Source: Pachysolen tannophilus NRRL Y-2460 (lineage: Eukaryota). From it: a stretch of DNA of 64,000 bases. The notes under the pieces were generated by a model that had not been told where the DNA came from, made no database searches, and saw only the letters and a program-made list of their open reading frames with translations. Location of the stretch: NCBI GenBank assembly GCA_001661245.1, contig KV454012.1:1198848-1262847 (forward strand), read 5' to 3'. Below are positions 925 through 41,837 of the stretch, piece by piece. Within the stretch, counting starts at the first letter, position 1, and each line of letters begins with the position of its first letter. The translations under genes and the position numbers were made by a program.

Positions 925-1908
925 TATAAAGTATATACATACATATATATATATATATGTATATATATATGAAGTGATTAATTGCTCTTGTATATGATTT
1001 TATATATCGAATTGCTATGCTACTTCAATAATAACAAAACAATATTCCCAAAAAAAAAATAAAAATTTAATTCTTTATCTATGATTATCAATTAAAAAAT
1101 GGGTAATTATTTGATTTAATGATTTAATTTATTTCTGTTTAATGTTTAAAAAAAAAAATAAATATTAAACTTGAAACCCCATCCAATTGATCATCAAGAT
1201 AAACTTCTTTGATACCTCGATAACAATAACAATAACAATAACAATGTCTATTTATATTCTTATTCTTATTGTTATTATTAATATTAATATTACTCCAATT
1301 ACTTTTTATAAATATTTAAGTTAACCGCTGTTACAAATTGTATATAATTTGCCTTATACTAGTTAAAGAAGGTATCTATCTGTTTTAACGGTTTCGTTAA
1401 ACTTAGTCGCAAAGAGAACAAAAAAAAATCAAAAAAAAAAAAAAAACCAAAAAAAAAGAAATTAAAAACAGCTTTTTGATTATCTGCGCACTACTGTGTT
1501 TACATATATATATACATATATACCACATCACAGCGCGATTAAGGTACAGTGCTTACCGCTCATACATTAGGCGCATCGCAAGATGAATTTATAATTATTT
1601 TAAATGTGGACCGCAGTTAAAGTACACAGATGCGTACCACAGATGTAGTAAAGAAGAGCGCAAAAAAAGGTTTTTTATTATTATTTTCTTCAATAGTAGT
1701 AGTAGTAGTAGTAGTTATAATGATTACTATTAAGACAGGAATATCAAAACACAAGTATATTTCTGATTGTAATTTATTTTAAAAATTATGGAGCAAGCCA
1801 TTAAGGAATGTATATTATTAGCTACTTTTTCAAATTTATTTTTTTTTTTTTTTTTTGTTGAGCCAGAAGCAATTTACTAACTTATTATTATTTTTATTAT
1901 TTATTTAG

Positions 1909-2288
1909 CCGTTGTTGTAAGAGGTCGTTATGCCGGTAAAAAGGTAGTTATCGTCAAACCACATGACGAAGGTACCAAATCCCATCCTTTCCCACATGCC
2001 ATTGTTGCTGGTATCGAAAGAGAACCATTAAAAGTTACCAAAGGTATGGGTGCTAAGAAAGTTGCCAAGAGAACTAAAGTTAAACCATTTGTTAAATTAA
2101 TAAACTACAACCATTTAATGCCAACAAGATATACTTTTGACGTTGAACCAATCAAGTCCGCTGTCACCGGTGATGCTTTGGAAGATCCATCCCAAAGAGA
2201 AGCTGCCAAGAAGGAAGTCAAGAAAGAATTTGAATCAAGAGTGGCTAGTGGTAAGAACAAGTGGTTCTTTAGTAAATTAAACTTTTAA
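1909..2288 (+). CDS. RPL27: 60S ribosomal protein L27 (eL27), exon 2 only on this strand
   Basis: TACTAAC at 1875-1881 and TAG acceptor at 1906-1908, then (A)[21 protein letters not shown]...[10 protein letters not shown]...[12 protein letters not shown]. Codon usage is strongly biased as expected for a ribosomal protein gene. Confidence 0.97.
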
Positions 2289-2819
2289 AAGCAAAAATGA
2301 AAAAATGAAATAAAGAAAAGAAAAAAAAAAAAAAAAAAAATTAACAATAACAATTAACATAGGTTGTTTTTTCTTTTTTTTTCTTTTTTTTTTTTTTTTA
2401 TTATTCTTTCTTAACTTGAAAAAAAGGAAATATGAGTTTTTGTGAGTTTTTGTGATTTTGTTTTTAATCCATGTATAAAAATTTCTTTAAAATGGGTAAA
2501 TAGAGTTTTAATTTATATGATTCAATCACTTGGTGGAAAAATTGAAAATGCAGTATATTCATTCACCAAAAAAGATAATCAACTACTGATTAACTTCTTC
2601 CCATACTGAACCAGTCTAAAAATTTATCAAAATTTTCTCACAATACAACTGGTAACAATTCTTTTCATTCATTTATTCCATCCATCCATCCATCCATCTA
2701 TCTATCCATTAACTAACTAACACATTCATTCACTCACTTATTCACTCATTAACTCATTAACTCACTTGAACAATTCCCTCTTCTATTCACATATTGATAA
2801 AATTATTGAAATTACATAC

Positions 2820-2850
2820 CAACTTTACCTGATTTAATAAACTTAGCCAT
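2820..2850 (-). CDS. RPL27: RPL27 exon 1 (MAKFIKSGKV plus G), on the opposite strand to exon 2
   Basis: The reverse complement reads ATG GCT AAG TTT ATT AAA TCA GGT AAA GTT G|GTATGT. 31 nt plus 380 nt gives 411 nt, a 136-aa protein, the normal eL27 length with the yeast intron position. Confidence 0.95.
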
Positions 2851-3621
2851 TTCTAATGATATATTATTTTAATATTAAGTGTTATGGTAAAGAAACTTTT
2901 AATATTTTAATAAAAATTTAAATAAAGCAAAATTTTAGAAATCCCAGTACAAAAAGAGTGAAAAATTGGAAAAAAAGAGGTGAAAATTTTTGTTAGTTGA
3001 AAAAAAAAAAAAAAAGAAAAAACAAATCATAGACTGCACACGTACTTTTTTTTTCTTTTTTTTTCCTAATTAAGTACCGAAGTAGTGTGAGAAAACTGTG
3101 GATCCATTATAGACGATCGTTCTTAGTTTTACTCCAAGTGATCTACTATTAATAAAAGGGTAATTCTGAGAATACTTTTTTTTGTGACTGCTAATTTCTT
3201 TGAAACCGATTTACGATTAACGTTTAAGTAAATGCTACACGACTCGCAGCTCACGGCTTATTATTTAGGGAGGGTTCACCGGTCAAGGCTTAAGAGAAGG
3301 AGGAGGAGGGGGTAGTAGTGGGTAGTAAGTACTACATAGGATTTACTTACTAGCGATAAGAACACTACTACATGTTATATTATCAAATAATAAATTGCAA
3401 TTAAGAAAAAAAAGGTAGAAAAGGTGAAGAAATAAAATGCAAATCTCATGGAAATATATAATATAAAATAAGCTGAAATAAAGGGTAAGCCAGCTTTACC
3501 TCTTTTGTGTTTTGTCATTTGTTACTTGTTACTTGTTATTTGTCATTTGTCATTTGTCATTTTTTATTTTTCAATTTTCATTTTTCAATTTTCATTTCTA
3601 CCGTCTTGTATTTGAATTTAT

Positions 3622-6600
3622 CTATTTCTTTCTCTGGCTTCTAGCTAAGAATTTCGAATTTAAACTTGTGATCAACTTCTTTGGACTTCCTGCACTATTT
3701 GGGTTGCTGTTATTGCCGCTATCACTGTTGTGACTATGATGATGGCGCTGATGTAACATATGGCGTTCGGAATTTACTTGTGCAGATGGAGATACCTTTC
3801 TATTTGATGAGACAAATGATGAAGATCTGTAATTATTACCGGAAGAAGGATTTATCTCTGGATTACGCATGGCTGTATTGATTGCTCCAGCTATTAAAGC
3901 ATTATCACTTATAGATCTGTTATGGCCTGGCTTCAAGCCATCTCCATTTTCTGTTGGTGGTGGTGGTTTGCGGCGTGGTCTCCTAGAGTCATGACCTCCT
4001 CCTTCGCCAGTTGATTTTTGGCGTTGTTCTTCCATCGATGACCTATGACTTTTATTACTAGACGCAGATTGTAATAACTGATTTATGGCCTTTAAATCAT
4101 AATCTTTAATTGCATCAATTGCAATTTTTGGTGAGGTTGGTGAATCGGTTGTAAAATCGGTAGTATCGCTTGTTGCAGATCCATTATTAGCAAATACAGG
4201 TGATGATGATGAAACCTTAGCTGCAATTATTGCTGCTGTGGCGTTTGATACAGAACCAACTTCAGATTCAATTGACTCTCTTAACCTTCTATCTTCTTCA
4301 TTAGATTTCGACTTAGCTAAACTTGTGGTCCATTTAATCACCTCTTGTTTTTCAACCTCACACGATATCGTGACTTTAAGTGATTCAATAGCAAATAACC
4401 CCGTGGTTATTGAATTTTTCACTCTTCTATCTCCTATAACTTCTTTAAACTTGATTGCAGGATTTGTTAAATCAATTTCAGTTTTCAATTCAGTCTTATT
4501 TTTAGATGTTTTATTTTTTTCAAATTTTAATATTAAGGCCCTTCCAAATGTTGTCACTAATAAAGTACGCTCTATGGACAGCTCATGATCTGTTGAAGAT
4601 GTATTGTGCGAACCAGCACCTCCTGTTAGTCCACTGAAAACTTTCCTAAATTTACCGCCTGTGGTGACGTTCGATTCATTTGATTTACTCTCTTTACTCT
4701 TTTCTGATTCAACTTCTTCATCTGCAGCACTATAAACTATAGCTTCATCAGAATCGTCTTCAGAAATTGTTGAAATATTTTGGTTCTGCTGATTTCCAGC
4801 ATTACTACCAATACCAGGACTACTTGAATGCCTTAAACCTGGTTGTTTACCATGTGCAACTTGTGTTAAAAAACTTGTTGCCGATGCGTTTGATGATCTT
4901 CTACCGTTATTATAACCCAAAGGAGAATCGGCTAACATTCCTTTATATTTTTTCTCAAATTGAGCTGTTGATATTTGTGTCACCATTACAGGTCCAACTT
5001 TTAAAACTCTTTCATCGGGGTGCTTAAGATATTCTGACCAAGCTAAATCTACAGGGCCCATTTGTGGCACTTCTGTCGCTTGAGGAATATATCTCGTGTT
5101 TTTGGATGAAGACGATTCTCTCATAGAGCTTGAACTTTTCGATCTAAAGCCAACGTTATTGCCACTACTGTTATTATTATTGGAAGCAGTACCAGTTGTG
5201 ATTCCAGCTGAAATTCTTGATTTAATAACAGGTCTTAGAATATTAGTGCCCGGAATATATAAATCTTGAGAAGAATCACTGCCACTAGCATAAACAGTAC
5301 GTCCAGATGTCAGCTGATTTGACTCTCCTGTACTAGTATTACTACTGTTATTATTACTATTAATCATAATTTCCGCTGGTTTTTTCATCAAGGCAGCAGC
5401 AGCAGCACTGCTTGCCGATTTACCTGGTAAAACATAAGATTGTTGAGATTTTTTTGGTGGCGTCGACGGTGGTCCGGATTGATTGGATTGATTTGGTGTT
5501 GTTGGAGCTGATACAGAAGATGATGACAGTTGTAGCTTCAGGGATAAGGGAAGACCCAACTGAGGAGTCGATGGTTGGTTAGATGAAACTAAACTATTGC
5601 TTGATGCCGAATGCTTGCGAGTACTTAGTCTTGTATAATTATTAGTATTGTTGTTGTTGTTGTTATTAATGTTCAATTCTGGTACCGGCATCATGGATTT
5701 TGCTGTCACTTTATAAGGACTTAACTCTGGAAGTGGAGCTTCAAAAATAGAATCTGAATCTGACCAATTTATACCCTGATAAAAATAATGATTTTGTATT
5801 GTTTTTATAGTAGCTCTATCTTTTGGATTTAAAACCAAGATTTTTTTAACCAAGTCTCTAAGTACCAGTGGGAAACCTGCGGTGAAAGCATATTGCAATT
5901 TACAAACTTTTTGAAATGTTAAATATTCATTTGTGGCTTTAAAAGGAGGTTTACCAGCAATCATTTGATATATGATACATCCATATGCCCAAATATCACA
6001 TGCTTTACCTGCATATTTATCATTTAGCAATTCTGGTGAGACATATTCTGCCGTACCTACAAACGACTTTGCTCTTGCGTCAGACGGATATCTACCATTT
6101 TCATCTTTTTCCAATAATTTAGCCGTTCCAAAATCTGTAATTTGTGCTCTCATTTGAGAATCTATCAATATATTTTCTGGTTTCAAATCTCTATGAATAA
6201 CACCATTATCATGCATATATTTAACACCATCTAAAACCTGAGCACCATAGTATCTAACACATTCTTCATTCATACTTCCAAATTTTTTAATCAAAGTCAA
6301 CAATTCACCATTTGGAGCATAATCTAATACAAAATAAAGACTTGATTCATCTTGAAATGTAAAATATAAATGAATTATTCCATTTCTTTTCCCCAATCTA
6401 TTCAATGTATTCTTTTCAATATTAACATATTTTACTTTTTTCTCTTTAATTATATGTCTCTTATCTAAAACTTTAATGGCATAATTTTTATCTGTAGTCT
6501 TATCAGTTGCTAAAATCACTGTAGAATACGAACCTTCACCTAAACTTTTACCAAATTTAAAATCTTTTGCGGATTTTTTAATAATTTTTGTTATCAAGTT

Positions 6601-7137
6601 TCCATTTTCATCTTTTTCAGTCTTGATAATCTTTGCAGCGCCCCTCTCTTCCCAATTTTTAGATGAAGCTGCTAAATTTTTAGTAAGATTATGAATATTG
6701 TCATCAGAAGTTATAAGTTCAGTTGTAACACTGTCAGGAATAAATAATGAAGCTTCAGACATTGCTTTCATCTCACCATTTTTGAGGTAATGTGGTGGAA
6801 GCGGGGTTGACGGTGCCGTCTGTGCCACATGATCACTCAAAGGTGAAGATGAAATGGTTTCCAAGCGAGCCGATAGGTGTCTTATTGGAACCTGGACATT
6901 ACTATTAAAATCCAAAGATCCTACCGCTGTAACATCGTTCTCATCATCTTCACCGAAACTAGATGAATTCTTCTTATAAGCATCTACTATATCCATTGCC
7001 GATGAGGGACCTATACTGTTCTGACGGCGATCATTTTGATTACGGTTATGGTTACGGTTATGGCTATGGTGATGGTGATGATTATGGGGATGGCCATGAC
7101 CGCTGTTATCACTATTATCTAATATAGGACCAGACAT
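3622..7137 (-). CDS. PKH2: PDK1-family Ser/Thr kinase Pkh1/Pkh2
   Basis: DFKFGKSLGEGSYSTV, VKYVNIEKNTLNRL, HRDLKPEN, DFGTAK, SFVGTAEYVSPELL, KATNEYLTFQKV, plus a C-terminal PH-like region. Confidence 0.93.
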   Translation of the reverse strand: MSGPILDNSDNSGHGHPHNHHHHHSHNRNHNRNQNDRRQNSIGPSSAMDIVDAYKKNSSSFGEDDENDVTAVGSLDFNSNVQVPIRHLSARLETISSSPLSDHVAQTAPSTPLPPHYLKNGEMKAMSEASLFIPDSVTTELITSDDNIHNLTKNLAASSKNWEERGAAKIIKTEKDENGNLITKIIKKSAKDFKFGKSLGEGSYSTVILATDKTTDKNYAIKVLDKRHIIKEKKVKYVNIEKNTLNRLGKRNGIIHLYFTFQDESSLYFVLDYAPNGELLTLIKKFGSMNEECVRYYGAQVLDGVKYMHDNGVIHRDLKPENILIDSQMRAQITDFGTAKLLEKDENGRYPSDARAKSFVGTAEYVSPELLNDKYAGKACDIWAYGCIIYQMIAGKPPFKATNEYLTFQKVCKLQYAFTAGFPLVLRDLVKKILVLNPKDRATIKTIQNHYFYQGINWSDSDSIFEAPLPELSPYKVTAKSMMPVPELNINNNNNNNTNNYTRLSTRKHSASSNSLVSSNQPSTPQLGLPLSLKLQLSSSSVSAPTTPNQSNQSGPPSTPPKKSQQSYVLPGKSASSAAAAALMKKPAEIMINSNNNSSNTSTGESNQLTSGRTVYASGSDSSQDLYIPGTNILRPVIKSRISAGITTGTASNNNNSSGNNVGFRSKSSSSMRESSSSKNTRYIPQATEVPQMGPVDLAWSEYLKHPDERVLKVGPVMVTQISTAQFEKKYKGMLADSPLGYNNGRRSSNASATSFLTQVAHGKQPGLRHSSSPGIGSNAGNQQNQNISTISEDDSDEAIVYSAADEEVESEKSKESKSNESNVTTGGKFRKVFSGLTGGAGSHNTSSTDHELSIERTLLVTTFGRALILKFEKNKTSKNKTELKTEIDLTNPAIKFKEVIGDRRVKNSITTGLFAIESLKVTISCEVEKQEVIKWTTSLAKSKSNEEDRRLRESIESEVGSVSNATAAIIAAKVSSSSPVFANNGSATSDTTDFTTDSPTSPKIAIDAIKDYDLKAINQLLQSASSNKSHRSSMEEQRQKSTGEGGGHDSRRPRRKPPPPTENGDGLKPGHNRSISDNALIAGAINTAMRNPEINPSSGNNYRSSSFVSSNRKVSPSAQVNSERHMLHQRHHHSHNSDSGNNSNPNSAGSPKKLITSLNSKFLARSQRKK

Positions 7138-7765
7138 TTATCATAGATATTTCTTTCTAATATCAACAACAACCTTAAAAATATCAATAATCCCAACACT
7201 AATGATGATTATAACTCAATTGATGTCTTAAACATTAATTTATTTGCTTTTTCTATTTCTTGTCTTTTTTTTTTTTCTTTAGAAAAACTGTTATTCTTAC
7301 CAATGCAATAAACTTTTGTTGTATTTTTATAAATACACTTGCTTGATTTATATTTTCTACCCCAAACAAATTAAAAAAAAAAAAAATAAAATAAAATAAA
7401 ATAAATGATTTGCAAATAAGTTGAATAAACTCTAAAAACACTTGAATCAAATCACTATTCAAATATTTAAGCTCTATTCAAACTTATTTATGCTTTATTG
7501 TATTAATAACCTTACCGCCTTTTATATATTATAATTACAATTACAATTATAATATACAAAATAAATTTATTTAATTTAATTTTTCTTGTTTTGTCCTTCC
7601 TTCTCTTATTTGGATGTATCTCAACCGCGATAAAAAAAAAGGTTGAAAGAGGCAACGGGGAAAACAGGAATAATGAGGGCGGGCTTGGGCCAGATCATGA
7701 GCCGGAGAATGAGCCGGAGAATTAGTGAGAGTTTAGGCCTCGACGGAAAGAACAAAAACAGAAAC

Positions 7766-7796
<31 letters not shown>

Positions 7797-8228
7797 NNNN
7801 NNNNNNNNNNNNNNNNNNNNNNNNNNNNNNNNNNNNNNNNNNNNNNNNNNNNNNNNNNNNNNNNNNNNNNNNNNNNNNNNNNNNNNNNNNNNNNNNNNNN
7901 NNNNNNNNNNNNNNNNNNNNNNNNNNNNNNNNNNNNNNNNNNNNNNNNNNNNNNNNNNNNNNNNNNNNNNNNNNNNNNNNNNNNNNNNNNNNNNNNNNNN
8001 NNNNNNNNNNNNNNNNNNNNNNNNNNNNNNNNNNNNNNNNNNNNNNNNNNNNNNNNNNNNNNNNNNNNNNNNNNNNNNNNNNNNNNNNNNNNNNNNNNNN
8101 NNNNNNNNNNNNNNNNNNNNNNNNNNNNNNNNNNNNNNNNNNNNNNNNNNNNNNNNNNNNNNNNNNNNNNNNNNNNNNNNNNNNNNNNNNNNNNNNNNNN
8201 NNNNNNNNNNNNNNNNNNNNNNNNNNNN
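7797..8228. other. Assembly gap (N run) flanked by long poly(A) tracts
   Basis: Seen directly in the sequence. Confidence 1.
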
Positions 8229-8288
<60 letters not shown>

Positions 8289-8604
8289 ACTTTTAGGCCA
8301 GTATTCCGCCAGCTTGGGAGGGCTCAAGGGCGGTGATCTCTCTCTCTCTTTTTTTTTCTTCTCCGGCCGTTTTGTAGGCGGATAAGTGGTCGAGGATTAG
8401 GTGAATGCAATATTATGCATGAGAAGGTACGGTTTTTGTGTCACTGAACCAAGAGATGAGTTAGTTAATGAATGCTGTTGTGATTGAGACAACAGCTTGG
8501 CTTGGTGGGATTTTTTTTCCAAGGTTGACTTGATAAAAAGGCCGTTTGATAAAATTTAAGTTTCTTTTTCTTTTTTTTTTTTGGAGTTCAGTGTATTATG
8601 TATT

Positions 8605-11226: not shown

Positions 11227-11560
11227 ACTAATAAAAAATAGCCAGCTGATCAGATAATCAGCTGATCAACTGAACAACTAAACTAAACTAATCAATTCAT
11301 CAAGTTTATTAAAGTCTTCTTTTCTTCTTGGATTATAGCATTTTGGGTCCAAATCGTTTTTGGTGAGAAACAACAAAACAAAAAAGGTAGTACGTGAAAA
11401 ATCAAATTTAGAGAGTAAGATGAATATTCAAAAATTGTTCATTGAGTCACCAAAGAGAGAAACTTTATGATAATATATGAATTGATTGATAATTGTAATT
11501 AAAGGTGTATAGGAAAATTTTATTTATTATTTAGAGAAGTTGATATTTAAGGGTTGAAAA

Positions 11561-12823
11561 ATGACTGAGGAAGTTACTGAAGGTATTAATGCTTTGGATG
11601 TTAATCAAAAAATTACACCATGGGAGGTTGAAGGTGCTGTTGTTAATGGGAAATTACAAGGTATTGATTATCAAAAATTAGTTGAACAGTTTGGTACAAA
11701 ACTTATAACTTTAGAGACAATGAAGAGGTTTAAAGAGGTTACAGGACGGGAGCCACATCATTTTATGAAAAAGGGTTTATTTTTTTCTGAAAGGGATTTT
11801 AATAAGATTTTAGATTTATATGAAGCTGGTCAACCATTTTTCCTTTATACTGGAAGAGGTCCATCATCTGATTCAATTCATTGTGGTCATATGGTTCCAT
11901 TTATTTTCACAAAATGGTTACAAGATGTATTTGATGTTCCATTGGTGATTGAATTAACTGATGATGAGAAATTTTTATTTAAACAAAAATTAACTATTGA
12001 TGATGTGAAAAATTTTGCCAAGGAAAATGCTAAAGATATTATAGCTGTTGGATTTAATCCTGAAAATACTTTTATCTTTTCTGATTTAGAATATATGAAT
12101 AGTGGATTTTATGAAAATGTTGTTAGAACTTCAAGACAAATTACTACATCAACTGCAAAAGCAGTTTTTGGATTTCAAGATTCTGATAGTATTGGTAAAT
12201 TACATTTTGCTTCAGTTCAAATTTCTGCAGCTTTCCCATCATCTTTCCCAGGAGTTTTAGATCTCCCACCAAAAACCCCATGTTTGATTCCATGTGCTAT
12301 AGATCAAGATCCATATTTCAGAGTATGTAGAGATGTTGCAGATAAGTTAAAATTTTCAAAACCTTCATTGATTCATTCAAGATTTTTCCCAGCATTACAA
12401 GGTGCTACTACAAAAATGTCTGCTAGTGATGAAAATACTGCAATTTTCATGACTGATACTGCAAAGCAAATACAGAAAAAAATTAATAAATATGCTTTTT
12501 CTGGTGGTCAAGTTACAGTTGAAGAACATAGAAAATTAGGAGGAAATCCAGATATTGATGTTGCTTATCAATATTTATCATTTTTTGAAGATGATGACCA
12601 GATTTTGAAAAAAATTTCAGATGATTATAAATCAGGAGAATTATTATCAGGAGAATTGAAAAAATTATGTAGTGATAAATTAACTGAATTTGTATTAGGA
12701 TTTCAAGAAAGAAGATCAAAAATTGATGGGAAAGTTTTAGATTCTTTTATGAAACCACATAAATTGGTTAGTGGCACTAAACAAAGAATTGTTCCTATTA
12801 AACCAATACAAAAAAAGAAATAA
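11561..12823 (+). CDS. WRS1: Cytoplasmic tryptophanyl-tRNA synthetase
   Basis: ITPWEV, LYTGRGPSS, HxGH, PCAIDQDPYFR, KMSAS, KINKYAFSGG. Confidence 0.97.
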   Translation: MTEEVTEGINALDVNQKITPWEVEGAVVNGKLQGIDYQKLVEQFGTKLITLETMKRFKEVTGREPHHFMKKGLFFSERDFNKILDLYEAGQPFFLYTGRGPSSDSIHCGHMVPFIFTKWLQDVFDVPLVIELTDDEKFLFKQKLTIDDVKNFAKENAKDIIAVGFNPENTFIFSDLEYMNSGFYENVVRTSRQITTSTAKAVFGFQDSDSIGKLHFASVQISAAFPSSFPGVLDLPPKTPCLIPCAIDQDPYFRVCRDVADKLKFSKPSLIHSRFFPALQGATTKMSASDENTAIFMTDTAKQIQKKINKYAFSGGQVTVEEHRKLGGNPDIDVAYQYLSFFEDDDQILKKISDDYKSGELLSGELKKLCSDKLTEFVLGFQERRSKIDGKVLDSFMKPHKLVSGTKQRIVPIKPIQKKK

Positions 12824-13133
12824 TTATTTAACTCATATCTTCATATCTTCATGTCTAAAAAAAACTTTTATATTTTATTTTATTTTATTTTAACTTTTTT
12901 TTTTGGTTTTTTGGCTTTTGGTTTTTGGTTTTTTGGTTTTTCGGTTTTCGATATATATCATCATCATGTTCTAAAAATAGAATTTCATCAAAGTGCTTAA
13001 AAAAAAAAAGAAGAAATAAAAAAAATGAATAAAAAAAAAATGAATATAAAAAAATGAATAAAAAAAATTTTAAAAAAAAATGAAAAAAAAAAAAAAAAAA
13101 ACCTCTTAAGAAAGAAGTTGTAAAGTAAAACTT

Positions 13134-14943: not shown

Positions 14944-15010
14944 ATCCAGTAAGAAAATTTTAATACTTTTTATATATATATATATATATATATTTTTCTA
15001 ATTGTATAAT

Positions 15011-29993: not shown

Positions 29994-30192
29994 CTACTGC
30001 TTATGGTTAGTAGTGTGCAAAATTTTTTTTTAAAAAAAAAAATTCCTTCTAGAAATTTGAGTGGAAATTTTTCATTTCATTCTTAAGATCCAAAACGTAA
30101 ATTTAGCCCAAATTATAAGGTAAAAAAATTTAGCGTTTTGATAAACCAAAAAACATAGAATATAAAGACTTAAAATTAATTTTGTACTAGAG

Positions 30193-30757
30193 ATGGGCAT
30201 TGTTCATAATCCAAACAACTGGTAAGTGGTATATTTTTTTCAAAAACGATTTGACTTGGTACCAAAAAGAATAAAAAGAACTCTAACCAAGAATTTTTTT
30301 TTTTTTTTTTTTTTTTTTTTCATGAATTAGGCATTGGCTCGATAAAAACTGTTTACCTTGGAGTAAAACATATCTTGAAGAAAAACTTGGGAATACTGAG
30401 TTTAAAAATGATAAATTTCAAGTTATTTTAACTAAAGTCAGTTCTGTAACTGGTGATTGTGATGTTACTCAAAGAAAGGGACAGACTAGATGTATTTTTG
30501 ACTTACAATTGGAGTTTGAATCAAAATTATCATTTTTGGAAGAAGAAGATGAAGACATCAATTTCACTATTTTACTTCCTGAATTTGGACATGATCAAGA
30601 TGAAGATGATTATGATTTCATAATCACTGGAGGTAATGCAGAGCTTAAAAAAATTATAAGAGATAATTTCATTCCACTAGTAAGGGCTAAATTACTCCAA
30701 TTCCAAGGTGATTTAATTAAGGAACATGACCAAAGTGTTAAGCACAATACTGATTAG
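30193..30757 (+). CDS. HCH1: Hsp90 co-chaperone Hch1 (Aha1 N-domain only). Exon 1 30193-30221, intron 30222-30330, exon 2 30331-30757.
   Basis: Spliced product is MGIVHNPNNW-HWLDKNCLPWSKTYL...VTGDCDVTQRKGQTRCIFDL (151 aa). GTAAGT donor, CTCTAAC branch candidate, TAG acceptor. Confidence 0.9.
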
Positions 30758-30985
30758 GTATCATATCACATTCATATATTATTTGTATACGTCTATTTAT
30801 ATAAAAAATGGGGGAATTATACACGGCCGTATAATAAGTATACATAAATAGAAAGTTTCCAAAAAAAATCTTTATATACATTTTAAGATAACGAGGGAAA
30901 AATATAAAAAAATAGTAAATAATAGTAAAATCAATATCTATAAACTTATTATACTAATTCACTCATTAGTTATTTATTCATATAT

Positions 30986-32242
30986 ATGGCTTCTCCTATT
31001 CCAGTGATATCACAGCCGTTTAAGAAACATCAAGTTTTTGCAGCATTTTGGATATTTGGGTTATTAAACAATGTATTATATGTTGTTATATTATCTGCTG
31101 CCATTGATCTAGTAGGAGCTTTAGTTCCTAAAGCAACAGTATTACTTGCTGATGTTTTACCATCTTTATTGGTTAAGATACTGGCTCCTTTTTTTATTCA
31201 ATTGATACCGTATAATTATAAAATTACTGTAATTGTGCTGTTGGATATTTTAGGCATGTTAACCATTGTATATTCAGATAATACTTCTTGGAAACTTTTC
31301 GGGATTGTGTTGGCATCTTTGAGTTCAGGTTTGGGTGAAGTAAGTTTCTTACAATTGACCCATTATTATACCAATACTTCATTAAAAGCATTCAGCTCTG
31401 GAACAGGTGGTGCAGGATTAGTTGGTAGCTTTACATATTTTTTAATGACTACTGTCTTGGGGGTTTCAGTTAAAATCAGTTTGTTAGTATTCACAGTTGT
31501 TCCTTTTATCATAATCTTTGATTTTTTCTGGTTATTACCGACACCTGTTTTTCTGTTTGATCTTGAAAACAATGGTTTATCTTATGGTGAAATAGAAGAT
31601 AATCTGGATAATAATAGTGGTAGTATTAGATCTCTCAAATTTAATGATTTGAAATTAAATAAGGAATCATTCATTTTTTTGAAGAAACACGTTCTGAATG
31701 TTTGTAGGAAACTTGAGCTATTAATTGTTCCATTTATGATACCATTAACGACAGTATACATTGCTGAATATATAATCAATCAAGGTATCTCACCAACATT
31801 GCTTTTCTCTATTGATAAGACCCCTTTCAAAAAATATAGAGATTTGTATGTGGCATATGGAACTCTTTATCAATTAGGAGTATTTATATCAAGATCATCA
31901 GCGTCTTTCTACAGGATTAAAAGACTTTATATCCCATCATTACTTCAATTTATAAATTTGCTGATTTGTTTTGCACAGTCTTTATTTATGATAATTCCAA
32001 ATGTAAATTTAGTGTTATTGTTAATGTTTTATGAAGGTTTACTAGGTGGTGCTTCTTATGTAAATACTTTTATGTTAGTTACAGAATCGGTGGATTTAGA
32101 AAATAGAGAATTTGCTATGGGTGCTGTTGGTGTCAGTGACAGCTTCGGTATTGTTGTTGCTGCATGCATAAGCATGTGGTTAGAACCTAAGTTGTGTCAA
32201 TTTCAAGTAAGTGATGGAAGACCTTGGTGTAGAATGGAATGA
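30986..32242 (+). CDS. YHC3: Battenin/CLN3 ortholog, vacuolar membrane protein
   Basis: FGLLNNVLYVVILSAA, SSGLGEVSFL, SSGTGGAG, EYIINQGISPTL, YQLGVFISRSS, YEGLLGGASYVNT. Confidence 0.95.
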   Translation: MASPIPVISQPFKKHQVFAAFWIFGLLNNVLYVVILSAAIDLVGALVPKATVLLADVLPSLLVKILAPFFIQLIPYNYKITVIVLLDILGMLTIVYSDNTSWKLFGIVLASLSSGLGEVSFLQLTHYYTNTSLKAFSSGTGGAGLVGSFTYFLMTTVLGVSVKISLLVFTVVPFIIIFDFFWLLPTPVFLFDLENNGLSYGEIEDNLDNNSGSIRSLKFNDLKLNKESFIFLKKHVLNVCRKLELLIVPFMIPLTTVYIAEYIINQGISPTLLFSIDKTPFKKYRDLYVAYGTLYQLGVFISRSSASFYRIKRLYIPSLLQFINLLICFAQSLFMIIPNVNLVLLLMFYEGLLGGASYVNTFMLVTESVDLENREFAMGAVGVSDSFGIVVAACISMWLEPKLCQFQVSDGRPWCRME

Positions 32243-32501
32243 AATGTCGGCTTACTTTATATATTTAACTTATAATAATATGATCAAAATATTTGTAAAA
32301 GAAAATAAAATAGAATTATACATACACAAAATTTTAAATGAAAATGCTACCCAATTATAATATCGATTGATGATAATAGATAAAACAATTCTATATATTG
32401 AACCTACCCCACCAAAAATAAAAATAATAATAATAAAAAAAAAAAAAAATCATAATAATGAATACCCAATCTGATCTCTCAGTCTCTTTTGTACATATTA
32501 A

Positions 32502-34781
32502 TTAATCGTCATCATCAAAACAATACATTTTTACCTCTCCATTCTCAGAACCATAAGCAAATTTGGAATCACCAATTGCAACACAACAAACGCTATCAGT
32601 ATTACCACCAAAAGTGTGTATACACTTACCGTTCTGCAAATCCCAAACTTTAACTAATCTATCATGAGCACCGCTTACAATCCTAAAAGTATCTGCAGCA
32701 ATGGACCATACTCCTTGAATATGGCCAAACTGCGTTCTGATACATTTTCCAGTTTTCACATCCCACAACTTGATAGTATTATCCAACGATGAAGTAAGAA
32801 TATGTGTTGGATAATTTGGATTTGGTGGAAGCGATGGCTGCAGTTCATGATGGTTTTCGGGATTTGCAGGTGCTTCTCCAAGGCTATTCAGTTCATTTAG
32901 GCCGCGCAACACCACAGGTTGCGCACCTTGGGTATTTTGCAGTATTGAAATTCTATTACGGTCACGGCGCTGTTGTCTAGTCTGTTCTCTATCAGTATTA
33001 ATGTTGTTGGCTGCCATGTTGCTATTATTATTATTCATATTGTTATTATTGTTGACGCCATGTTCTCTAATTTCTTCACTTTCACTTTCATCAGTTGTGT
33101 CTTCAACAACTTCAGTTTTGATAGTCAAAGGGATGACACATTGAACCTGTCCAATGTGACCATTATTCTCAACACCTCCAAATATACGAAGACATTCGTT
33201 TGATTTTAAATCCCACATTCTTACTGTTGTATCATCCGATGCAGAAAATATAGTATTACTCTTATGATGAATCTTAACACTATTAACCCAGTCTGTGTGT
33301 CCTCTAAGCGTATAACAAGTTCTTGAATCAACATGCCAAACTTTTACTGTCTTATCAGCTGATCCACTTGCAATTGTTGTGTTATAAAAATCTACAGAGA
33401 CAACGCTATCTTCATGACCTCTATAAGTTGAGATGCATTGACCAGTATGGTAATTCCATACTTTTATAGTGGAATCCAATCCACCAGTAATTAATTTTTG
33501 ATCATCAAATGCTAATGTACGAACTCCTTTTGAATGTCCTGATAAAGTTCTTAATAATTCTCCTGTCTTAATATTCCATATTTTCACTGTTGTATCATAA
33601 GACCCAGTTATTAATACATCATTATTGAATTGTAAACAGGTGATACCATCTTCATGTCCATTAAAACATTTGACAGTATATATTCCTTTTCTCCAATTTC
33701 TTTCAACTTTAAATCTCTCACTATAAACTGCTTTCCAAGGTCTTTTCTTACGGACAATTTGTTGAGGTTGGTTTTGTTGATTATCTGATTTTGAAGATGA
33801 TGCATCTTCAGCAGTATCACCATCCTCAAGTTTCCGTTTCTTGCTGTTGCACTGGCTCATTGCTGCAGCATTATATTCCTTAGCTCTTTTCATGTGCATT
33901 AAAGGTAACCCCCATCCACAATTTGGGCATTTTCTATCAATATGTTGTTCACACATATAATGCCATACTCTATCATCATCAGCCAAACTTTTCCATCTCT
34001 GATTTACTTGTGCAGCATTACATAAGGAAGAACAATCCAAATAACACAAGATTTTTATAGAAAGTTCATATGGAAGATTTGAAATAAAATCAATTTTAAT
34101 TAATTTTGAAACTTCTTGTGATATTAATGATAATTGTGGGAAACAACATTGACTTAATAAACCTTGTAAAATTAAAGTTCTATGCTGACTTGGAGCAGCT
34201 CCAAAGATTGACCAACAATGTGAGATGGCTTCTTGATCATTTCTAGACAATTTCTCCAAGTTTTGTTGAATTTGAGTCATTTTTAATTCATCTGTTGATT
34301 TGTTACATTGAACATCGGGGTTATGCCTATAACAATATTTGTGGAAATTATCCTTCGGTATTAAATTTTGATCTGCTATATGTTTCACCAAGAAAGGAGT
34401 AACTATTGAAGTATCTTTACCTGAACCGCCACTGCTACTACTACTACCAATATCACTATTATTATTATTAGTACCAGTACTTACACTGGAAGTACCGGCG
34501 GCAAAGGAAGAGACAGAGGCGGCGGTAGCGCCGCTAGCGCTACCTCTGCTACCTCTGCTACCTCTGCTACCGCTGCCATTGCTAGCATCGTCACTGGTCT
34601 CATTCCCATGACCATCGCTCTCTAACTGATTACCCTGCGACATCGTGACTTTCACATCATTTTGAATCTTCTTATTTGCTGAAATGTCTCTTGTTACTGT
34701 AGTCGACACTCTACTACTAAGTAAAACTTTTTCCAAAGAATCTGAAGAAGAAGTTGGTCCACAAACTTCTTTTAAATTCAT
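32502..34781 (-). CDS. MET30: SCF F-box/WD40 substrate receptor Met30
   Basis: KYCYRHNPD, CCFPQLS, F-box IDFISNLPYELSIKILCYLD, MCEQHIDRKCPNCGWGLPL, followed by WD40 repeats. Confidence 0.95.
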   Translation of the reverse strand: MNLKEVCGPTSSSDSLEKVLLSSRVSTTVTRDISANKKIQNDVKVTMSQGNQLESDGHGNETSDDASNGSGSRGSRGSRGSASGATAASVSSFAAGTSSVSTGTNNNNSDIGSSSSSGGSGKDTSIVTPFLVKHIADQNLIPKDNFHKYCYRHNPDVQCNKSTDELKMTQIQQNLEKLSRNDQEAISHCWSIFGAAPSQHRTLILQGLLSQCCFPQLSLISQEVSKLIKIDFISNLPYELSIKILCYLDCSSLCNAAQVNQRWKSLADDDRVWHYMCEQHIDRKCPNCGWGLPLMHMKRAKEYNAAAMSQCNSKKRKLEDGDTAEDASSSKSDNQQNQPQQIVRKKRPWKAVYSERFKVERNWRKGIYTVKCFNGHEDGITCLQFNNDVLITGSYDTTVKIWNIKTGELLRTLSGHSKGVRTLAFDDQKLITGGLDSTIKVWNYHTGQCISTYRGHEDSVVSVDFYNTTIASGSADKTVKVWHVDSRTCYTLRGHTDWVNSVKIHHKSNTIFSASDDTTVRMWDLKSNECLRIFGGVENNGHIGQVQCVIPLTIKTEVVEDTTDESESEEIREHGVNNNNNMNNNNSNMAANNINTDREQTRQQRRDRNRISILQNTQGAQPVVLRGLNELNSLGEAPANPENHHELQPSLPPNPNYPTHILTSSLDNTIKLWDVKTGKCIRTQFGHIQGVWSIAADTFRIVSGAHDRLVKVWDLQNGKCIHTFGGNTDSVCCVAIGDSKFAYGSENGEVKMYCFDDDD

Positions 34782-35030
34782 ATTCCAAAACCCAATCTAT
34801 TTATTTAATTTATTTATTTATTTATTTCAATCAAGCAATTTATTACCACTTACCTATCCTTACTCTTTCCTCAATACAGATCCCCTATATTAATTTTCTA
34901 TTTCTAATTTTGAAATATTGTGACAACATATGATCAATCGATGATGCTATGGCGAAAAGAAAAAAAAAACACTGGCTTTTTTTTTTAAAAGAAAATAATA
35001 CATTTTAAGTAAAAAGAAAAAAAAAGAAAT

Positions 35031-35348
35031 GACGCCACACTTTCCTTAAAAGAAAGAAAAAAAAAAAAAAAATTTTTTTTTTTTTTGTTTTTGTTTTTTG
35101 TTTACTTTAACCAGCCACCAATGCTTTCCGTAAAGGGAAATACCAGGAAACATAAGGGAACATCAGGAAACACCACAACACACTCCTGTTACGTACACCT
35201 TTTGTGGACCATGTGGCGTGTATAATTTTTTTTTTTTTTTTACTTTTTTGTTAGACAAGCAAGCCACAAAGACCAAATTAGAATAGTATGGCTAATTAGT
35301 TTTTTCTCTCTTCTTTTTCACTTCTTCTTTAGGAGTAAATGTGGCGTC
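35031..35348. promoter_or_regulatory. Cluster of TGTGGC(G)/GCCACA motifs upstream of MET30 (Met31/Met32-type sites)
   Basis: GACGCCACAC 35031, ATGTGGCGTG 35211, AAGCCACA 35261, ATGTGGCGTC 35339. Confidence 0.6.
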
Positions 35349-36266
35349 TACGTCAAGGAAAATTTATAAAATAATTTTAAAATAATTAATTAAAGAGAAA
35401 TCTGATCTGGGGTATTTTAAGCAGATAATTTCTCTTCTCTGCAAGATGGTCATTTCACCGAAACAGAGTCCGAAATTACATCAAAAAAGGCAAAAAGTGA
35501 AAAACAAAAAACAAAAAAAAAAAAAAAATCAAGCACTTAACAAAGTATTTCCGTAAAGAATTTACTACATTTACCAATGTATCAGTGTGATAGCGAGCCC
35601 ATGGGTCATTCAAAACCTAATTTAACAATTTTTAATAAATTATATTAATTCAATTTGAGACCATACTTATCTTTCTTCTTAAAGATATAGATACACATGG
35701 GGGAAAATTCCTTTTGTTTTTCTTCTCTTTCATTTTTTATGTAATTTATTTTTTTATTATGGTCGTGTGCTGGAATTACAATTTGAATAACTGGGCCTTC
35801 TCGTGAGCGCGCGCGCGCCTTCATTTCAACTCCAATTTCTCCTCTTTTTTTCTATTTTTCCTTAACATTTTTTCCCCTGGTGGTCCTGTATAATAAGGAA
35901 TTAACCGCCAATTGTTTTATTTTTATATTTTTATTTATTTATATTTATAATTAATAGTAGTTAGATATTACATGTTTGTTTTTATTGGATTAAAAATATA
36001 AACCATAAGGGCGCTAGAGAGAGGGTTATAGTTTAGAAGAAGCGCCATATAGAGTGCGAATTTTAAGTATAACAAAAAGACGAAAAAGAGGGAAAAGAGA
36101 AGGAAAAAAAAGATATATATATATATATATATATATTTGAATATATATCGAGCGAGATATAGTTTATTCAAGGTGAGTGCGTTTTAAATACGTGCTTCAT
36201 CTTTTGTATGAGCGGTTGTGGGTTTTTTCAATTTTCATTAAAGATATTTGTATTATTTTTTGTTTG

Positions 36267-38945
36267 ATGGTTGAAATGTCTAGTACGACAAGTAATACAG
36301 AATATAACGATTCAGCTGTTTTTCTTCAAAATTCGTCTCTAGTATATCCGATATCATGTGTTGAATGTAGAAGAAGAAAAATTAAATGTTGTAAAAGGTA
36401 TCCATGTAAACAATGTGTTAAAAGATCAATAAAATGTGAATTTCCAGAAAAATTTAGATCGATTGAAATTGGGGATATTATTAATAATGAAATTAGTAGA
36501 GATCCAAATATTATATCACCATTAAGTACTTCAGGTTCAAATATTTTATCTTCAACTATATCTGTTAATTTAGCAAAAGAAAATGAATCTTTAAAACTGA
36601 AAATTTCAAATTTAGAATCAAGATTGGAAAATATTAATTTTTTCAATAATAAAAGATTACTAAATAATAATAATAATAATAATAACTTACATGATGGTGA
36701 TGAAGATTTATATGAAGATATAGAATATAATGATTCAGAATTATCAAAGGAAAAATATTATGGTCCAAACTCTGCAATTTTTATGGTTAAATCAACTCTG
36801 GATGCTAAAAATTTGGAATTTGATCAATTTATAAAAGTTAAAACTGAATTAAAACATAAAAGAGAATTACCAATGTTATTAACGCCTGAAAATAATAATA
36901 ATAATAATAATAATAATAATTCATCATTTATAACAGATAATGAAAATCTTAAAATGTCAAATTTTTCATTAATTTGTCAATTGGTTTCAATTTTTTTCCA
37001 ATTAAGAAATTATTGTAATAATTTTATAAATGAAAAAGATGTATTTAATTTCTTACATAATTATGCTACGATTAAGAATTGGTCAAATGATGATGATTTA
37101 TTATTATTAATTATGATCATAGTTACAACTTTGAGAAGTATGAGAAGAGATGACCCTTTATTGGTTGAATATAATTTAAAATTCGAAGTTATAAATAGTA
37201 GATTAATGAAACAATTTGAACATTTAAAAAATGGTATTAGAAATGAAACTATAAGATCATTACAATCTTATGTCTTGGCATGTGAACATTATTATTATTA
37301 TTCTCAAGCTGAAAAATCATGGAACATGTTATTTCATACAGTAGCAAATGCATATTCTTTAGGATTACATGTTTATGATAAAGAAATTGAAATTTCTTTG
37401 AAAAATACTAAAAAAAATACTTTAAAAGTTATCCAAAATGATCCACGTACCTCATTATGGTTAACTATTAATTTCATAAGTTCTGTCTTGTGTTCAGTTG
37501 TTGGAAGACCAAATCCAGTTACTTTCACTTTTCAACCTTTAATAAAAAATCTTGATATAAAATTGAATTATAAAATAGCAATAAGTGAATTAATTAAAAA
37601 ATCAACGAAAATTTTAATTGAAAGTTATAAAGTTACTATAGATTATAAAAAAATAATGGAAATTGATGAACAATTTGAATCAGAAATAGAAATTTATAAT
37701 AAATTAATTTTAGATAATGCTGAAGAAAGACAACGTTTACAAGAATTAGAATTAGAAAAATTGAGGTATAGAACTAAGAGGCAACATTTAGATCATAATA
37801 ATAATAATCAAAGACAACCCACAAAAGCTATTAAACTGGAAAATCAAACTGATAATTCACTGAAAACTTATAGACATAATCAGGCAAATGATTTTAATTA
37901 TATTTTGAATAACGAAAAAGATTCAAAATTTTCTTCAATGGATTCATTATCATCTTCCGGAAACTCTCTGTCTTCATTTACAGAAAAATTTTCATTATTA
38001 GATACTGATTGTGAAACATATTGTGATTTGCTTTTATGTTATGCCAATAGATCTAAATTTCATCAACCTTTTATGTCAACTTATCAAACTTCAACAAAAA
38101 TTTTGTTAAATTCTGTTTTAAAAGTTTGCCATTATGCGATATTATTAATTAAGACATTACAGAAAAAAATTAATAATGTAAATTTTCTGGCCATATATCC
38201 ATTTTTTTATTGTTTTCTTTACCAATCTTTTATTGTATTTTACACTTTTTTACATTTAGATTTTGAAAATATTTTATGTTTTTATAAATTTGAAATCTTG
38301 GAGATTTCACAACACTTGGATCAATTGTACAAGTTGATTGACGATTTTTATTGGAAGCAGAATGCAATTAGAATCATCAAAAAGATTAAAGAGTTGGTTA
38401 ATAAGTTCAAGAGACAATATGAAAAATGGATCAAAGAAAGTAATACTGGAAATTTATATCCAATTTCATCAAACCAAAATTTGGCTAATTTAGCAAATGC
38501 TAACAAGAGTGTTGAATCACAATCTACACCAGTTTCACCTTTTGCAAATAATGGCTGTGACAGTCATAGCAATAGCAATAGAAACTTGAAATCTTTGTTT
38601 CCGGAAATATCAGAAAGAGAGAGCAGTATTAGAGTATCTAATGGTAGTGCTAATAACGTTAATGTCGGCTCTAACGTCAATGCCAATAACAACAATTTGT
38701 TCGGAATAGATACCAATACATTTCAATGGGATAAAACTTTATTTGACAATTTTACAGTGGATCCTGTATTAGGATTTGATTTAAATGATCCATTTTTCAT
38801 TTCAAACCCAGAAGGAGGTATACCAAACGATTATTTTGGAAACAATCGACTTAGTGATGGAAGCATTTCTCGTGGCTCAATAGAAGCTATGACTAGCACT
38901 GAAAATGTTAATGACACCAAAAAAACCTTAAAACGACAACGATAA
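36267..38945 (+). CDS. Zn(II)2Cys6 transcription factor with a fungal TF middle-homology region
   Basis: CVECRRRKIKCCKRYPCKQCVKRSIKC, coiled coil, YYGPNS, AYSLGLH. ATG at 36267 or 36276 (the track starts at GTG). Confidence 0.88.
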   Translation: MVEMSSTTSNTEYNDSAVFLQNSSLVYPISCVECRRRKIKCCKRYPCKQCVKRSIKCEFPEKFRSIEIGDIINNEISRDPNIISPLSTSGSNILSSTISVNLAKENESLKLKISNLESRLENINFFNNKRLLNNNNNNNNLHDGDEDLYEDIEYNDSELSKEKYYGPNSAIFMVKSTLDAKNLEFDQFIKVKTELKHKRELPMLLTPENNNNNNNNNNSSFITDNENLKMSNFSLICQLVSIFFQLRNYCNNFINEKDVFNFLHNYATIKNWSNDDDLLLLIMIIVTTLRSMRRDDPLLVEYNLKFEVINSRLMKQFEHLKNGIRNETIRSLQSYVLACEHYYYYSQAEKSWNMLFHTVANAYSLGLHVYDKEIEISLKNTKKNTLKVIQNDPRTSLWLTINFISSVLCSVVGRPNPVTFTFQPLIKNLDIKLNYKIAISELIKKSTKILIESYKVTIDYKKIMEIDEQFESEIEIYNKLILDNAEERQRLQELELEKLRYRTKRQHLDHNNNNQRQPTKAIKLENQTDNSLKTYRHNQANDFNYILNNEKDSKFSSMDSLSSSGNSLSSFTEKFSLLDTDCETYCDLLLCYANRSKFHQPFMSTYQTSTKILLNSVLKVCHYAILLIKTLQKKINNVNFLAIYPFFYCFLYQSFIVFYTFLHLDFENILCFYKFEILEISQHLDQLYKLIDDFYWKQNAIRIIKKIKELVNKFKRQYEKWIKESNTGNLYPISSNQNLANLANANKSVESQSTPVSPFANNGCDSHSNSNRNLKSLFPEISERESSIRVSNGSANNVNVGSNVNANNNNLFGIDTNTFQWDKTLFDNFTVDPVLGFDLNDPFFISNPEGGIPNDYFGNNRLSDGSISRGSIEAMTSTENVNDTKKTLKRQR

Positions 38946-39240
38946 ACATCATATCACCAACAACTTTGGAAAACCTGGGTTTTTTATCTTTTAATTTATT
39001 TTATTGTTTTTTATATTTATTAGAAATAGGGGGTTTCCCCCTAAATTATGTTTTTTTTTCTTTGAGACATTCGTTTTTTACCTTTTTCCTTCCCTTCACA
39101 CACTATAGACATATTGTATAATTCTTTTTGTTTTCTTTTCCCTTTTGATTTTTTTTAGCTTCTAAAGTAGTGACGAATGAAACGTGATAATAATATTCCT
39201 ATGATTATTGATTATTTATTTAAAAACTTCATTAAAATTT

Positions 39241-39923
39241 TTTCTATTATTATTATTTTTATTGTTAACAATGACTGGTTTATGGTTATTCTCCTTTGTA
39301 TTATGTACATATTGACCCAACAACAAACTCAAAGTTTCCAAATCAAATTTATTGAACTTTCCTGAACCTATTAAATTTTCCAAATATTTCTGTAGAGTAG
39401 TAATTAATGAAATATTATCAGAATTGTAATTTAATTTGGATTTTAAAGAACCATCAACCAATTTTCTAACAAGTTCTAAAGTTACAGGGAAAGATTTTTT
39501 TTTATCATTTAAAACACTTAGCTTGGAGTATACTTTAACAAAATTCCATATAGTTTCCCCATTGAATTGTAAATTTATCAAATTTACCCTTTTCACAAAT
39601 TCAAATACATATAATTTTAATATCTTGGAATTGGAAATAATATCAGGATTTATTGAACCTAGGGAAAAAATCTTAATAGATTCCTCCGCAGTTTCACCAA
39701 GATATGTTTTCAAAAATTCAAAAAGTTGTTGTTGAGACTTGACTGATAATTTTTCATCTCGAGATGCATATATGTCTATTAATTTTTGGAATAAAGTAAT
39801 ATAATACTCAATCAAATGAACCCAAATTACTGGATCTTTATCGATCAACGAAGACCTTAGTTTAAAAGGTGGATAAGCAACAATAGGAATATCACGAAAT
39901 ATTACACCCTGATCACCATTCAT
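39241..39923 (-). CDS. CUE3: CUE3 (RQT3/ASCC2-like) N-terminal half, in inverted orientation
   Basis: PIVAYPPFKLRSSLIDKDPVIWVHLIEYY, LGSINPDI, LVDGSLK and LIGSGKFNKFDL match the Cue3 N-terminus (PIVKFPPFKLRAQLIEKDPVVWLHLIETY...LIESGKFKRIDL). As it stands the frame stops at 39216. Confidence 0.9.
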
Positions 39924-40231
39924 TTCAGAAGATATAACCGACTATGAGCAAATCTTACTAAACCTAACTAGTAATGAACAATACTCATCCAAGATTAATT
40001 AAAACAATAAAGGAATTAAAAGAAAGAAAAAAAAAAAATTAAAGTTCTCAAGAATCAAAATTTTTGTACAAACCTCAAAAAAAAACCTGCCAAAAACTAT
40101 CAATAAGAACAAAGATATCAATGAAATCCAACTACCTTAGACCAATTCTCATTCTTATTTATTTGTTAATTAACGTTGGCTTTAACTAGATGATCTGTCT
40201 GTTATTAATCCAAATAACAAAAAAAAAAAAT

Positions 40232-40304
40232 TGCCTTCAGCCAGATTCGAACTGACGATCTCCTCATTACTAGTGAGGTGCCTTACCAACTTGGCCATAA
40301 AGGC
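40232..40304 (-). tRNA. tRNA-Thr(AGT)
   Basis: GCCTTTATGGCCAAGTTGGTAAGGCACCTCACT-AGT-AATGAGGAGATCGTCAGTTCGAATCTGGCTGAAGGCA. Has a cloverleaf fold, A and B boxes and a downstream poly(T) terminator. Confidence 0.96.
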
Positions 40305-40409
40305 TATTAATTTTTAGCGAAACTGATGATACTTATTTCACGTCTTTAGAGCATAGGATCCACAACTCTTGCCAATACAATTTTGTTATCCATTTACATG
40401 TTTGAAAAA

Positions 40410-41837
40410 AAAATTTTACCTTCTGCTTCTTATGAATTTTCTGGAAGATTTGTTAACGGAAAATGGTTTGAGATGCTAGAAGTGTTGTATAATAAGGGTA
40501 CAGGTGTTCATTCGAAACAGGTTTTCGAGATTGAAGTGATTTCAATATTATCATTACCCGTGGCCCAATTAAGTAAAGTGATTACCACAGATTTAAGAAT
40601 TGATAATTATTTAATGTTAATAAGACTTTATCCGCTTTTATGTAAAATTGTACTCTCCAAGAATTATCGATCGTTGAATCCAGGTTTGGAACAAAGGTTA
40701 CCATTTTTATCTAAGGAAGGAAGGAAATTGAAGCTGCTGCCAATCTTCGATACAAGTCATATTCAAATGGTGAGTGATTTGTTTCCACAGTTAAATACTT
40801 TGCAGATTAAAAAATTATTAGTTGATTGTGATAATAATATTGAAGTCGTCACTAATAAATTATTAGAAATGAGCGAGGAAAAGATACTGAACTTGGAAGA
40901 ATATAAAGAAATTCAAAATCCTTACTCCTCATCAAATAAGAGAACTGTATTTGATGGCGATGAAATATCGCAATTGAAATTGGACGACTCAAGAGTTTAT
41001 CTTGGTAAAAAGAATAAAATTGTTCATCCTACTGGTGATTTAGATAAAACTTCTGCTGCTGATTTGAAAAAGAAAACTTTAACTGCAGCATTAAGATTAC
41101 TATATGAATCAGACGAAGATGAACCTGATGATACTTACTTGGATCAAGAAAAGACATTTGGAGAGGCTCAATCAGCAGGAAAGAAACTTGAAATTGACTT
41201 GGAAAATGAAGAGTTAGAAGAAGAATTAGAGGATAGATCTTCTACTGTCAAGAAAATACCAACTAACCAAATGGATATGATTGAGCATAGACTATTCGCA
41301 GTTTTCAAGAAATCTCCTGAATTATTTGAGAAATCTGCAAGAAAATCGAAAAATAGGCAATTAATGAAGCAAGAAACAGGTTGGACTGATGAACAGATTG
41401 AGGGTTGGTACAGAATGTTATTTAAATCACCAAAGCGTTTTAAATTATTAGATGAGTATTATAATTTTGGAGGTGGTCCAAATGGTATTGGAAATCCGAA
41501 CAGAGGTACTTTGAAACCTAGCAGTTACAGGAAATCAAGGCGCGAAGAAGAAGAAGAAAAAGAGGAAGAAGAATCTAACACGGAGGATGATGACAAAAGT
41601 ACTACAGAAAGTAATAAGAATAACAGGTTTAATAATAATGGTAATAAGCATGAGCTGAAAATTATTTCTAATGTTAAAAAGGGAGATACGGATAATAGCA
41701 AGGAAGATGGTAAATCAAACGTTTCTGAGAAAAGTTCGAAGATCAAGCGTGCTAGAGATAATAAAAATAAGGCTAAAAAGGCTAATCATAATAGAAAACT
41801 GGGCCATGATAGAAAAATGGCTCAAGGGTTTTCGTAG
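40410..41837 (+). CDS. CUE3: CUE3 C-terminal half, including the CUE ubiquitin-binding domain
   Basis: FVNGKWFEMLEVLYNKG, CUE domain DLFPQLNTLQIKKLLVDCDNNIEVVTNKLLE, ALRLLYESDEDEPDDTY, TGWTDEQIEGWYRML, ANHNRK.GHDRK. The homology alignment continues from where the minus-strand half ends. Confidence 0.92.
   Translation, partial: KILPSASYEFSGRFVNGKWFEMLEVLYNKGTGVHSKQVFEIEVISILSLPVAQLSKVITTDLRIDNYLMLIRLYPLLCKIVLSKNYRSLNPGLEQRLPFLSKEGRKLKLLPIFDTSHIQMVSDLFPQLNTLQIKKLLVDCDNNIEVVTNKLLEMSEEKILNLEEYKEIQNPYSSSNKRTVFDGDEISQLKLDDSRVYLGKKNKIVHPTGDLDKTSAADLKKKTLTAALRLLYESDEDEPDDTYLDQEKTFGEAQSAGKKLEIDLENEELEEELEDRSSTVKKIPTNQMDMIEHRLFAVFKKSPELFEKSARKSKNRQLMKQETGWTDEQIEGWYRMLFKSPKRFKLLDEYYNFGGGPNGIGNPNRGTLKPSSYRKSRREEEEEKEEEESNTEDDDKSTTESNKNNRFNNNGNKHELKIISNVKKGDTDNSKEDGKSNVSEKSSKIKRARDNKNKAKKANHNRKLGHDRKMAQGFS

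Follow-up and report, generated by a model that had tools for sequence, protein, structure and literature searches.

Strand flips that split RPL27 and CUE3 in a Pachysolen tannophilus assembly are very probably assembly errors

Can two genes of a yeast each lie partly on one strand and partly on the other, or has the sequence been put together wrongly? The question is raised by a 64-kb stretch of the Pachysolen tannophilus NRRL Y-2460 genome (GenBank assembly GCA_001661245.1, contig KV454012.1, positions 1,198,848 to 1,262,847 of the forward strand), the whole of which we call the window. An original prediction, made from the letters of this stretch, had pointed to two gap-free inversions of about 1 kb, one breaking RPL27 and one breaking CUE3, and had proposed a shared cause: either mis-orientation or manipulation of the sequence, or an active process of small inversions mediated by microhomology. 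The strand switches themselves are confirmed in the sequence. RPL27 has its exon 1 on the minus strand but its exon 2 on the plus strand; the amino-terminal half (N-half) of CUE3 lies on the minus strand and the carboxy-terminal half (C-half) on the plus strand. We conclude that both lesions are very probably errors of the deposited assembly and not features of the organism. The flip in CUE3 is an assembly artefact, as contigs from independent sequencing runs demonstrate, and the flip in RPL27 is likely, by analogy, to be an artefact of the same nature and cause.

The two halves of CUE3 fit together as parts of one gene. The N-half (39923..39219, minus strand, 235 codons) matches approximately residues 4-234 of its orthologues, and the C-half (40403..41837, plus strand), which contains the CUE domain found by Pfam, matches approximately residues 213-656. 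This was the case for all five orthologues tested, and against each of the five the halves were complementary, with no part of the gene lost or duplicated. Turning positions 39232-40402 back produces one frame of 2127 nt, or 708 codons, in which the sole stop is the terminal one. The restored join reads ...NRKNFN/EKKILPS... and resembles the RNINKK motif that the orthologues have at that place. The flipped block is 1171 bp long (39232..40402, by contig placement) and comprises the N-half, its upstream region and a multi-copy tRNA-Thr gene with anticodon AGU (40232..40304, minus strand).

In the window as deposited, the ends of both halves are products of the junctions. The last five codons of the N-half (EVFK and the stop) come from the left flank and were created by the junction, and the public model for the C-half, P0001 (479 amino acids), starts at an ATG at 40398 that was likewise made by the junction, its first two residues being coded across it. 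The public protein collection lists the N-half as a separate protein, P0091 (235 amino acids; sources NCBI, UniRef, nr and MetaClust), and both P0091 and P0001 come from a single contig of 2,193,613 bp.

Sequencing reads assembled independently of the window show how the halves are arranged in the DNA. We considered five runs, of which X1 to X4 come from one sample and study and X5 from a second sample and a second study. None is recorded as RNA, and they contain 95-96% of the words sampled from positions 36000-45999. The runs were used in the form of Logan contigs (31-mer contigs), and the contigs of X1, X2, X3 and X5 were placed on positions 30000-49999. In each of these four runs, and thus in two samples from two studies, a single contig unites the N-half of CUE3 directly with the C-half. 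These bridging contigs (records 4, 11, 18 and 25; 2417-2496 nt) begin on the minus strand at 39273-40251 (40200 in X3), where their initial 984 letters fall (931 in X3); 41 unplaced letters come next, after which the contigs run along the plus strand at 40403-41834. The 41 letters equal the span from 39272 down to 39232, a low-complexity stretch that was apparently skipped in placement; the coordinates of the block's two ends must therefore add up to 79634, which gives a block of 39232-40402. The depth of the bridging contigs was 176, 70, 175 and 122 over the four runs, equal to that of the neighbouring contigs, so the colinear CUE3 is the main form of this locus. Mis-orientation, one of the causes originally proposed, is thereby established for CUE3: in all four runs the contigs are colinear with CUE3 and conflict with the window, which is the outcome that the original prediction itself had set against a real inversion.

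The contigs of the left flank agree with this order. They are placed up to 39231 (X1 and X3) or 39227 (X2 and X5), and they carry 127-132 further letters. If these letters followed the order of the window, more than 80 of them would overlap the bridging contig. Once the block is turned back, they would reach 29-30 nt into tRNA-Thr, and we infer that the left-flank contigs stop inside this multi-copy gene, as expected for a 31-mer contig. The bin that contains the tRNA gene (40005-40671) has a depth approximately three times that of the neighbouring bins. In the four runs, no listed contig crosses 39231/39232 or 40402/40403 as these junctions are written in the window, at a resolution where contigs miss rare forms. 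The remaining listed contigs in 30000-49999 each lie on one strand, and within this range no other flip was found, with the limit that a flip having both ends at contig breaks would be invisible. Some further joints did appear in the contig placement, a number of them with sides of only 20-22 letters; we took these joints as low-complexity matches of contigs from elsewhere. Contig cover was low at 35336-36002.

The sole homology at the ends of the CUE3 block is the 4-nt sequence TTCA (39228..39231), an inverted identity with TGAA at 40403-40406. It accounts for the 4-nt gap between the two placements of the left-flank contigs, and the ends of the block are ambiguous by the same amount, so that each of them could be as much as 4 nt further out. 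Among 200,000 random pairs of ends drawn from the window, 2.8% had an identity of 4 nt or longer (P = 0.028). The short low-complexity inverted microhomologies described in the original prediction are indeed present near the flips, but the 11-nt match at CUE3 (39233-43 and 40408-18) is not the junction: a join inside it would break the reading frame, and by contig placement the ends are 1-16 nt away. The right end had been set at 40418, probably from this match, which is 16 nt off the contigs' 40402.

Other features of the junctions were as predicted. No junction contains an N; the sole N run in the window is at 7797-8228. (These 432 N sit within a poly-A tract at 7767-8284, with A30 before and A56 after.) We found no coding decay in the pieces of RPL27 or CUE3, and no recombinase or transposase among the 31 open reading frames (ORFs) that were scanned with Pfam, each of at least 90 codons and picked out of 57 in the window. 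Apart from low-complexity matches, no sizeable inverted repeats bound either flip.

RPL27 is split at its intron. Exon 1 (2850..2820, minus strand, 31 nt) encodes MAKFIKSGKV and begins a further codon with its last base, and the first 11 residues are identical to those of the public proteins P0097 and P0099. It is followed by the 5' splice site GTATGT (2819..2814, minus strand), one of two occurrences of this motif on both strands of 901-3600; the other, at minus 937-942, lies beside the start of a neighbouring gene. The remainder of the intron is on the opposite strand. The branch point TACTAAC at plus 1875-1881, the sole occurrence on either strand within 901-3600, is 24 nt ahead of the TAG 3' splice site at plus 1906-1908. 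Exon 2 follows immediately at plus 1909-2288, including the stop, and matches the Pfam family Ribosomal_L27e (E = 2e-38). When the two exons are joined they make 136 codons and a stop, and 111 of the 136 residues are identical to P0097 and likewise to P0099.

The public model of this gene, P0092 (133 amino acids), is 100% identical to exon 2 across 125 amino acids, but instead of the conserved MAKFIKSGKVA it has the false N-terminus MEQAIKE. This comes from a makeshift first exon at 1788..1808 on the plus strand, which replaces the true exon 1 and is followed by the non-canonical donor GTATAT. The makeshift exon shows gene callers papering over the flip.

The simplest reading of this arrangement is that RPL27 is a minus-strand gene, and that the turned block holds exon 2 together with the 3' portion of the intron and the 3' flank. 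The left end of such a flip lies within 925-1874 and the right end within 2288-2813, which bounds its size at 0.4-1.9 kb. Neither the predicted size of about 1 kb nor the proposed start at 1695 is thereby established for RPL27. An A-rich and T-rich pair at 1412-1461 and 2368-2417 (50 nt, 78% complementary) is a candidate for the boundaries of the RPL27 flip, but a flip does not require repeats of this kind, as the ends at CUE3 demonstrate. We also considered whether the flip cuts a small nucleolar RNA; Rfam returned nothing at the gathering score, and a permissive search of 900-3700 gave chance-level matches only.

An intact copy of RPL27 elsewhere in the genome would make a genuine break tolerable. 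Among the best 120 of 1172 matches to the public proteins, P0092 was the only RPL27 from this species, and the next-best matches within the same 120 were 82-83% identical and came from other genera. RPL27 is essential in Saccharomyces cerevisiae, where its loss is lethal, so a genuine break would be expected to be lethal here. The case that the RPL27 flip is an artefact like that of CUE3 draws on this essentiality, on the analogy with CUE3, on the perfect splice signals and on the fact that both flips come from the same assembly.

The flips were part of the deposited record before our analysis. P0001, P0091 and P0092 all depend on the flipped arrangement, and it follows that the flips were not introduced at a later step. 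All five CUG codons in 40398-41834 are read as alanine in P0001, and these are its sole differences from the standard-code translation; the source thus used the CUG-Ala code in its annotation, which places the yeast in the CUG-Ala clade.

The same comparison with contigs revealed errors of a second kind. Over approximately 17 kb of placed contigs there were zero true substitutions between the window and any run, but five homopolymers (after 39050, 40076, 40218, 46423 and 46548) are longer in every one of the four runs than in the window, and a sixth, at 40027-40038, shows a paired mismatch against the contigs. At 6 of the 17 homopolymer runs of 8 or longer, then, the window disagrees with each of the four sequencing runs, a sign that the assembly is error-prone: it undercalls long homopolymers. 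We asked whether the flipped block has an error profile of its own, since it contains 7 differences in 979 nt, whereas the flanks contain 3 in approximately 16.1 kb. All of these lie at long homopolymers, however, and counted by homopolymer run the figures are three of four within the block and three of 13 outside, a difference that is not convincing.

A homopolymer undercall also seems to have split a third gene. RAV1 is read as two overlapping frames, the N-terminal part with WD40 repeats at 56593-58635 and the Rav1p_C part at 58605-61175. They meet at an A13 run (58620-58632), where one added A would fuse them, and the gene is probably frameshifted. Apart from RAV1, the Pfam scan of the 31 ORFs gave no split genes besides RPL27 and CUE3, and the gene content of the window, an AT-rich piece of chromosome with approximately 30% G+C, is otherwise one of ordinary housekeeping genes.

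If the two flips share a cause, as we infer, a short and correct block would in each case have been written in reverse orientation, with no gap and no bases lost. On this reading, both RPL27 (minus strand, one intron) and CUE3 (plus strand, 708 codons) are intact and colinear in the organism itself. The origin of the fault would probably be technical, for instance in scaffolding, gap filling or patching; a gap patch put in the wrong way round would fit, although this is speculation.

Inversion-type mis-assemblies, in which a block is placed on the wrong strand, are a recognized class that is counted by GAGE and QUAST. They usually arise where a block is flanked by inverted repeats that exceed the read or word length, or where small contigs have been set the wrong way round in a scaffold, with gaps left beside them. 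The flips described here are like such errors in that flanks and block are each correct and the orientation alone is wrong, in that contigs contradict the CUE3 join, and in that homopolymer miscounts occur alongside. They are unlike the usual form in that the CUE3 flip is gap-free, has an inverted identity of 4 nt, and carries a multi-copy tRNA gene inside the block. Neither of the recognizable technical causes, long flanking inverted repeats and scaffold gaps, was found at the CUE3 ends, which have only the 4-nt identity and no N.

Several of these observations weigh against an assembly error, or at least against our extending it to both genes. Repeat-driven mis-assembly would not lead one to expect so exact a flip between unique sequences that share only 4 nt, nor a multi-copy tRNA gene in the middle of the block instead of at its ends. 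The 4-nt identity is somewhat above chance and would fit template switching in real molecules. Contigs drop rare variants, and a minority flipped form may exist. X1 to X3 may derive from the assembly's own sample, and X5, with zero substitutions, may be the same strain; the independence of the data thus holds for the sequencing but not necessarily for the isolate. For RPL27, finally, the status of artefact is argued from analogy and essentiality.

The strongest alternative, though we consider it unlikely, is that the inversions are real in a minority of cells or molecules. Template switching between short inverted identities would have produced them, whether in the living cell or in vitro when the DNA was cloned or amplified, and the minority form would by chance have entered the assembly. 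The identity at the CUE3 ends (P = 0.028 by chance) and the exactness of the flip, with zero bases lost, are what this would produce. The colinear contig, however, is at full depth in all four runs, and a contig with the window's junction is never listed. An assembler would not normally favour a minority form at several loci, and a flip in RPL27 would be lethal to the cells that carried it.

A related possibility, which we regard as very unlikely, is that short-range template switching at short inverted identities is a real process in this yeast, yielding exact inversions in some of its DNA molecules, and that the assembly captured several of these minority forms. Inversions formed by microhomology-driven template switching, as in fork stalling and template switching (FoSTeS) or microhomology-mediated break-induced replication (MMBIR), are real rearrangements of DNA. 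The CUE3 flip is like them in its exact junctions and the short inverted identity at its ends, but unlike them it is not the main DNA form in any of the four runs. The active microhomology-mediated process of the original prediction fares no better, as the colinear form is present at the depth of its neighbours; a rare minority form would be beyond the reach of the contigs.

It is more improbable again that the inversions are real and fixed in the sequenced isolate, with CUE3 truly broken and RPL27 truly split over both strands. Both flips are present in the deposited sequence and its annotation, and the pieces are undecayed, as they would be in a very young lesion. Against this, CUE3 is colinear in the contigs of two samples that show zero substitutions relative to the window, and RPL27, single among the best 120 of its 1172 matches, is a gene whose counterpart in S. 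cerevisiae is essential.

Pachysolen tannophilus does have a programmed inversion. According to the published account, its flip/flop mating-type switch turns an 8-kb invertible MAT region that lies between 2-kb inverted repeats (PMC6692504). That switch and the flips discussed here are both DNA inversions in the same species. As described there, however, the MAT switch depends on inverted repeats of kilobase length and is confined to one locus, whereas the flips of the window lie in ordinary genes, the CUE3 ends share 4 nt, and the CUE3 flip is absent from the contigs. Of the two marks of a programmed switch, we found neither: there were no sizeable inverted repeats at the ends of the flips, and no dedicated enzyme such as a recombinase among the 31 ORFs scanned. 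A search of the literature found no paper reporting flips like these in P. tannophilus, and no look-alike windows were found in other genomes.

Two last explanations can be set aside briefly. That the window was altered after download and the inversions planted is hardly credible: the exact, gap-free and nearly homology-free ends do resemble an in-silico flip, but P0001, P0091 and P0092 depend on the flipped arrangement independently of the window, so that the public proteins already hold the products of both flips and the suggestion of manipulation falls. Just as hard to credit is the idea that RPL27 is a true two-piece gene, its half-introns transcribed from opposite strands and joined by trans-splicing; the canonical GTATGT, TACTAAC and TAG are all kept in the half-introns, but the CUE3 flip in the same window is intron-free and an artefact, and we know of no precedent for trans-spliced two-piece genes in budding yeasts.

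An assembly error at both genes is therefore the reading that we prefer, and its significance lies in the quality control of this reference, with practical consequences. The errors have already produced wrong public gene models: the two halves of CUE3 stand as separate proteins, the N-terminus given for RPL27 is false, and RAV1 probably contains a frameshift. Those who use the assembly to study gene content, introns or synteny should check it for small switches of strand and for frameshifts at homopolymers. For the biology of P. tannophilus, the flips should not be taken as young lesions, as trans-splicing or as split RNAs.

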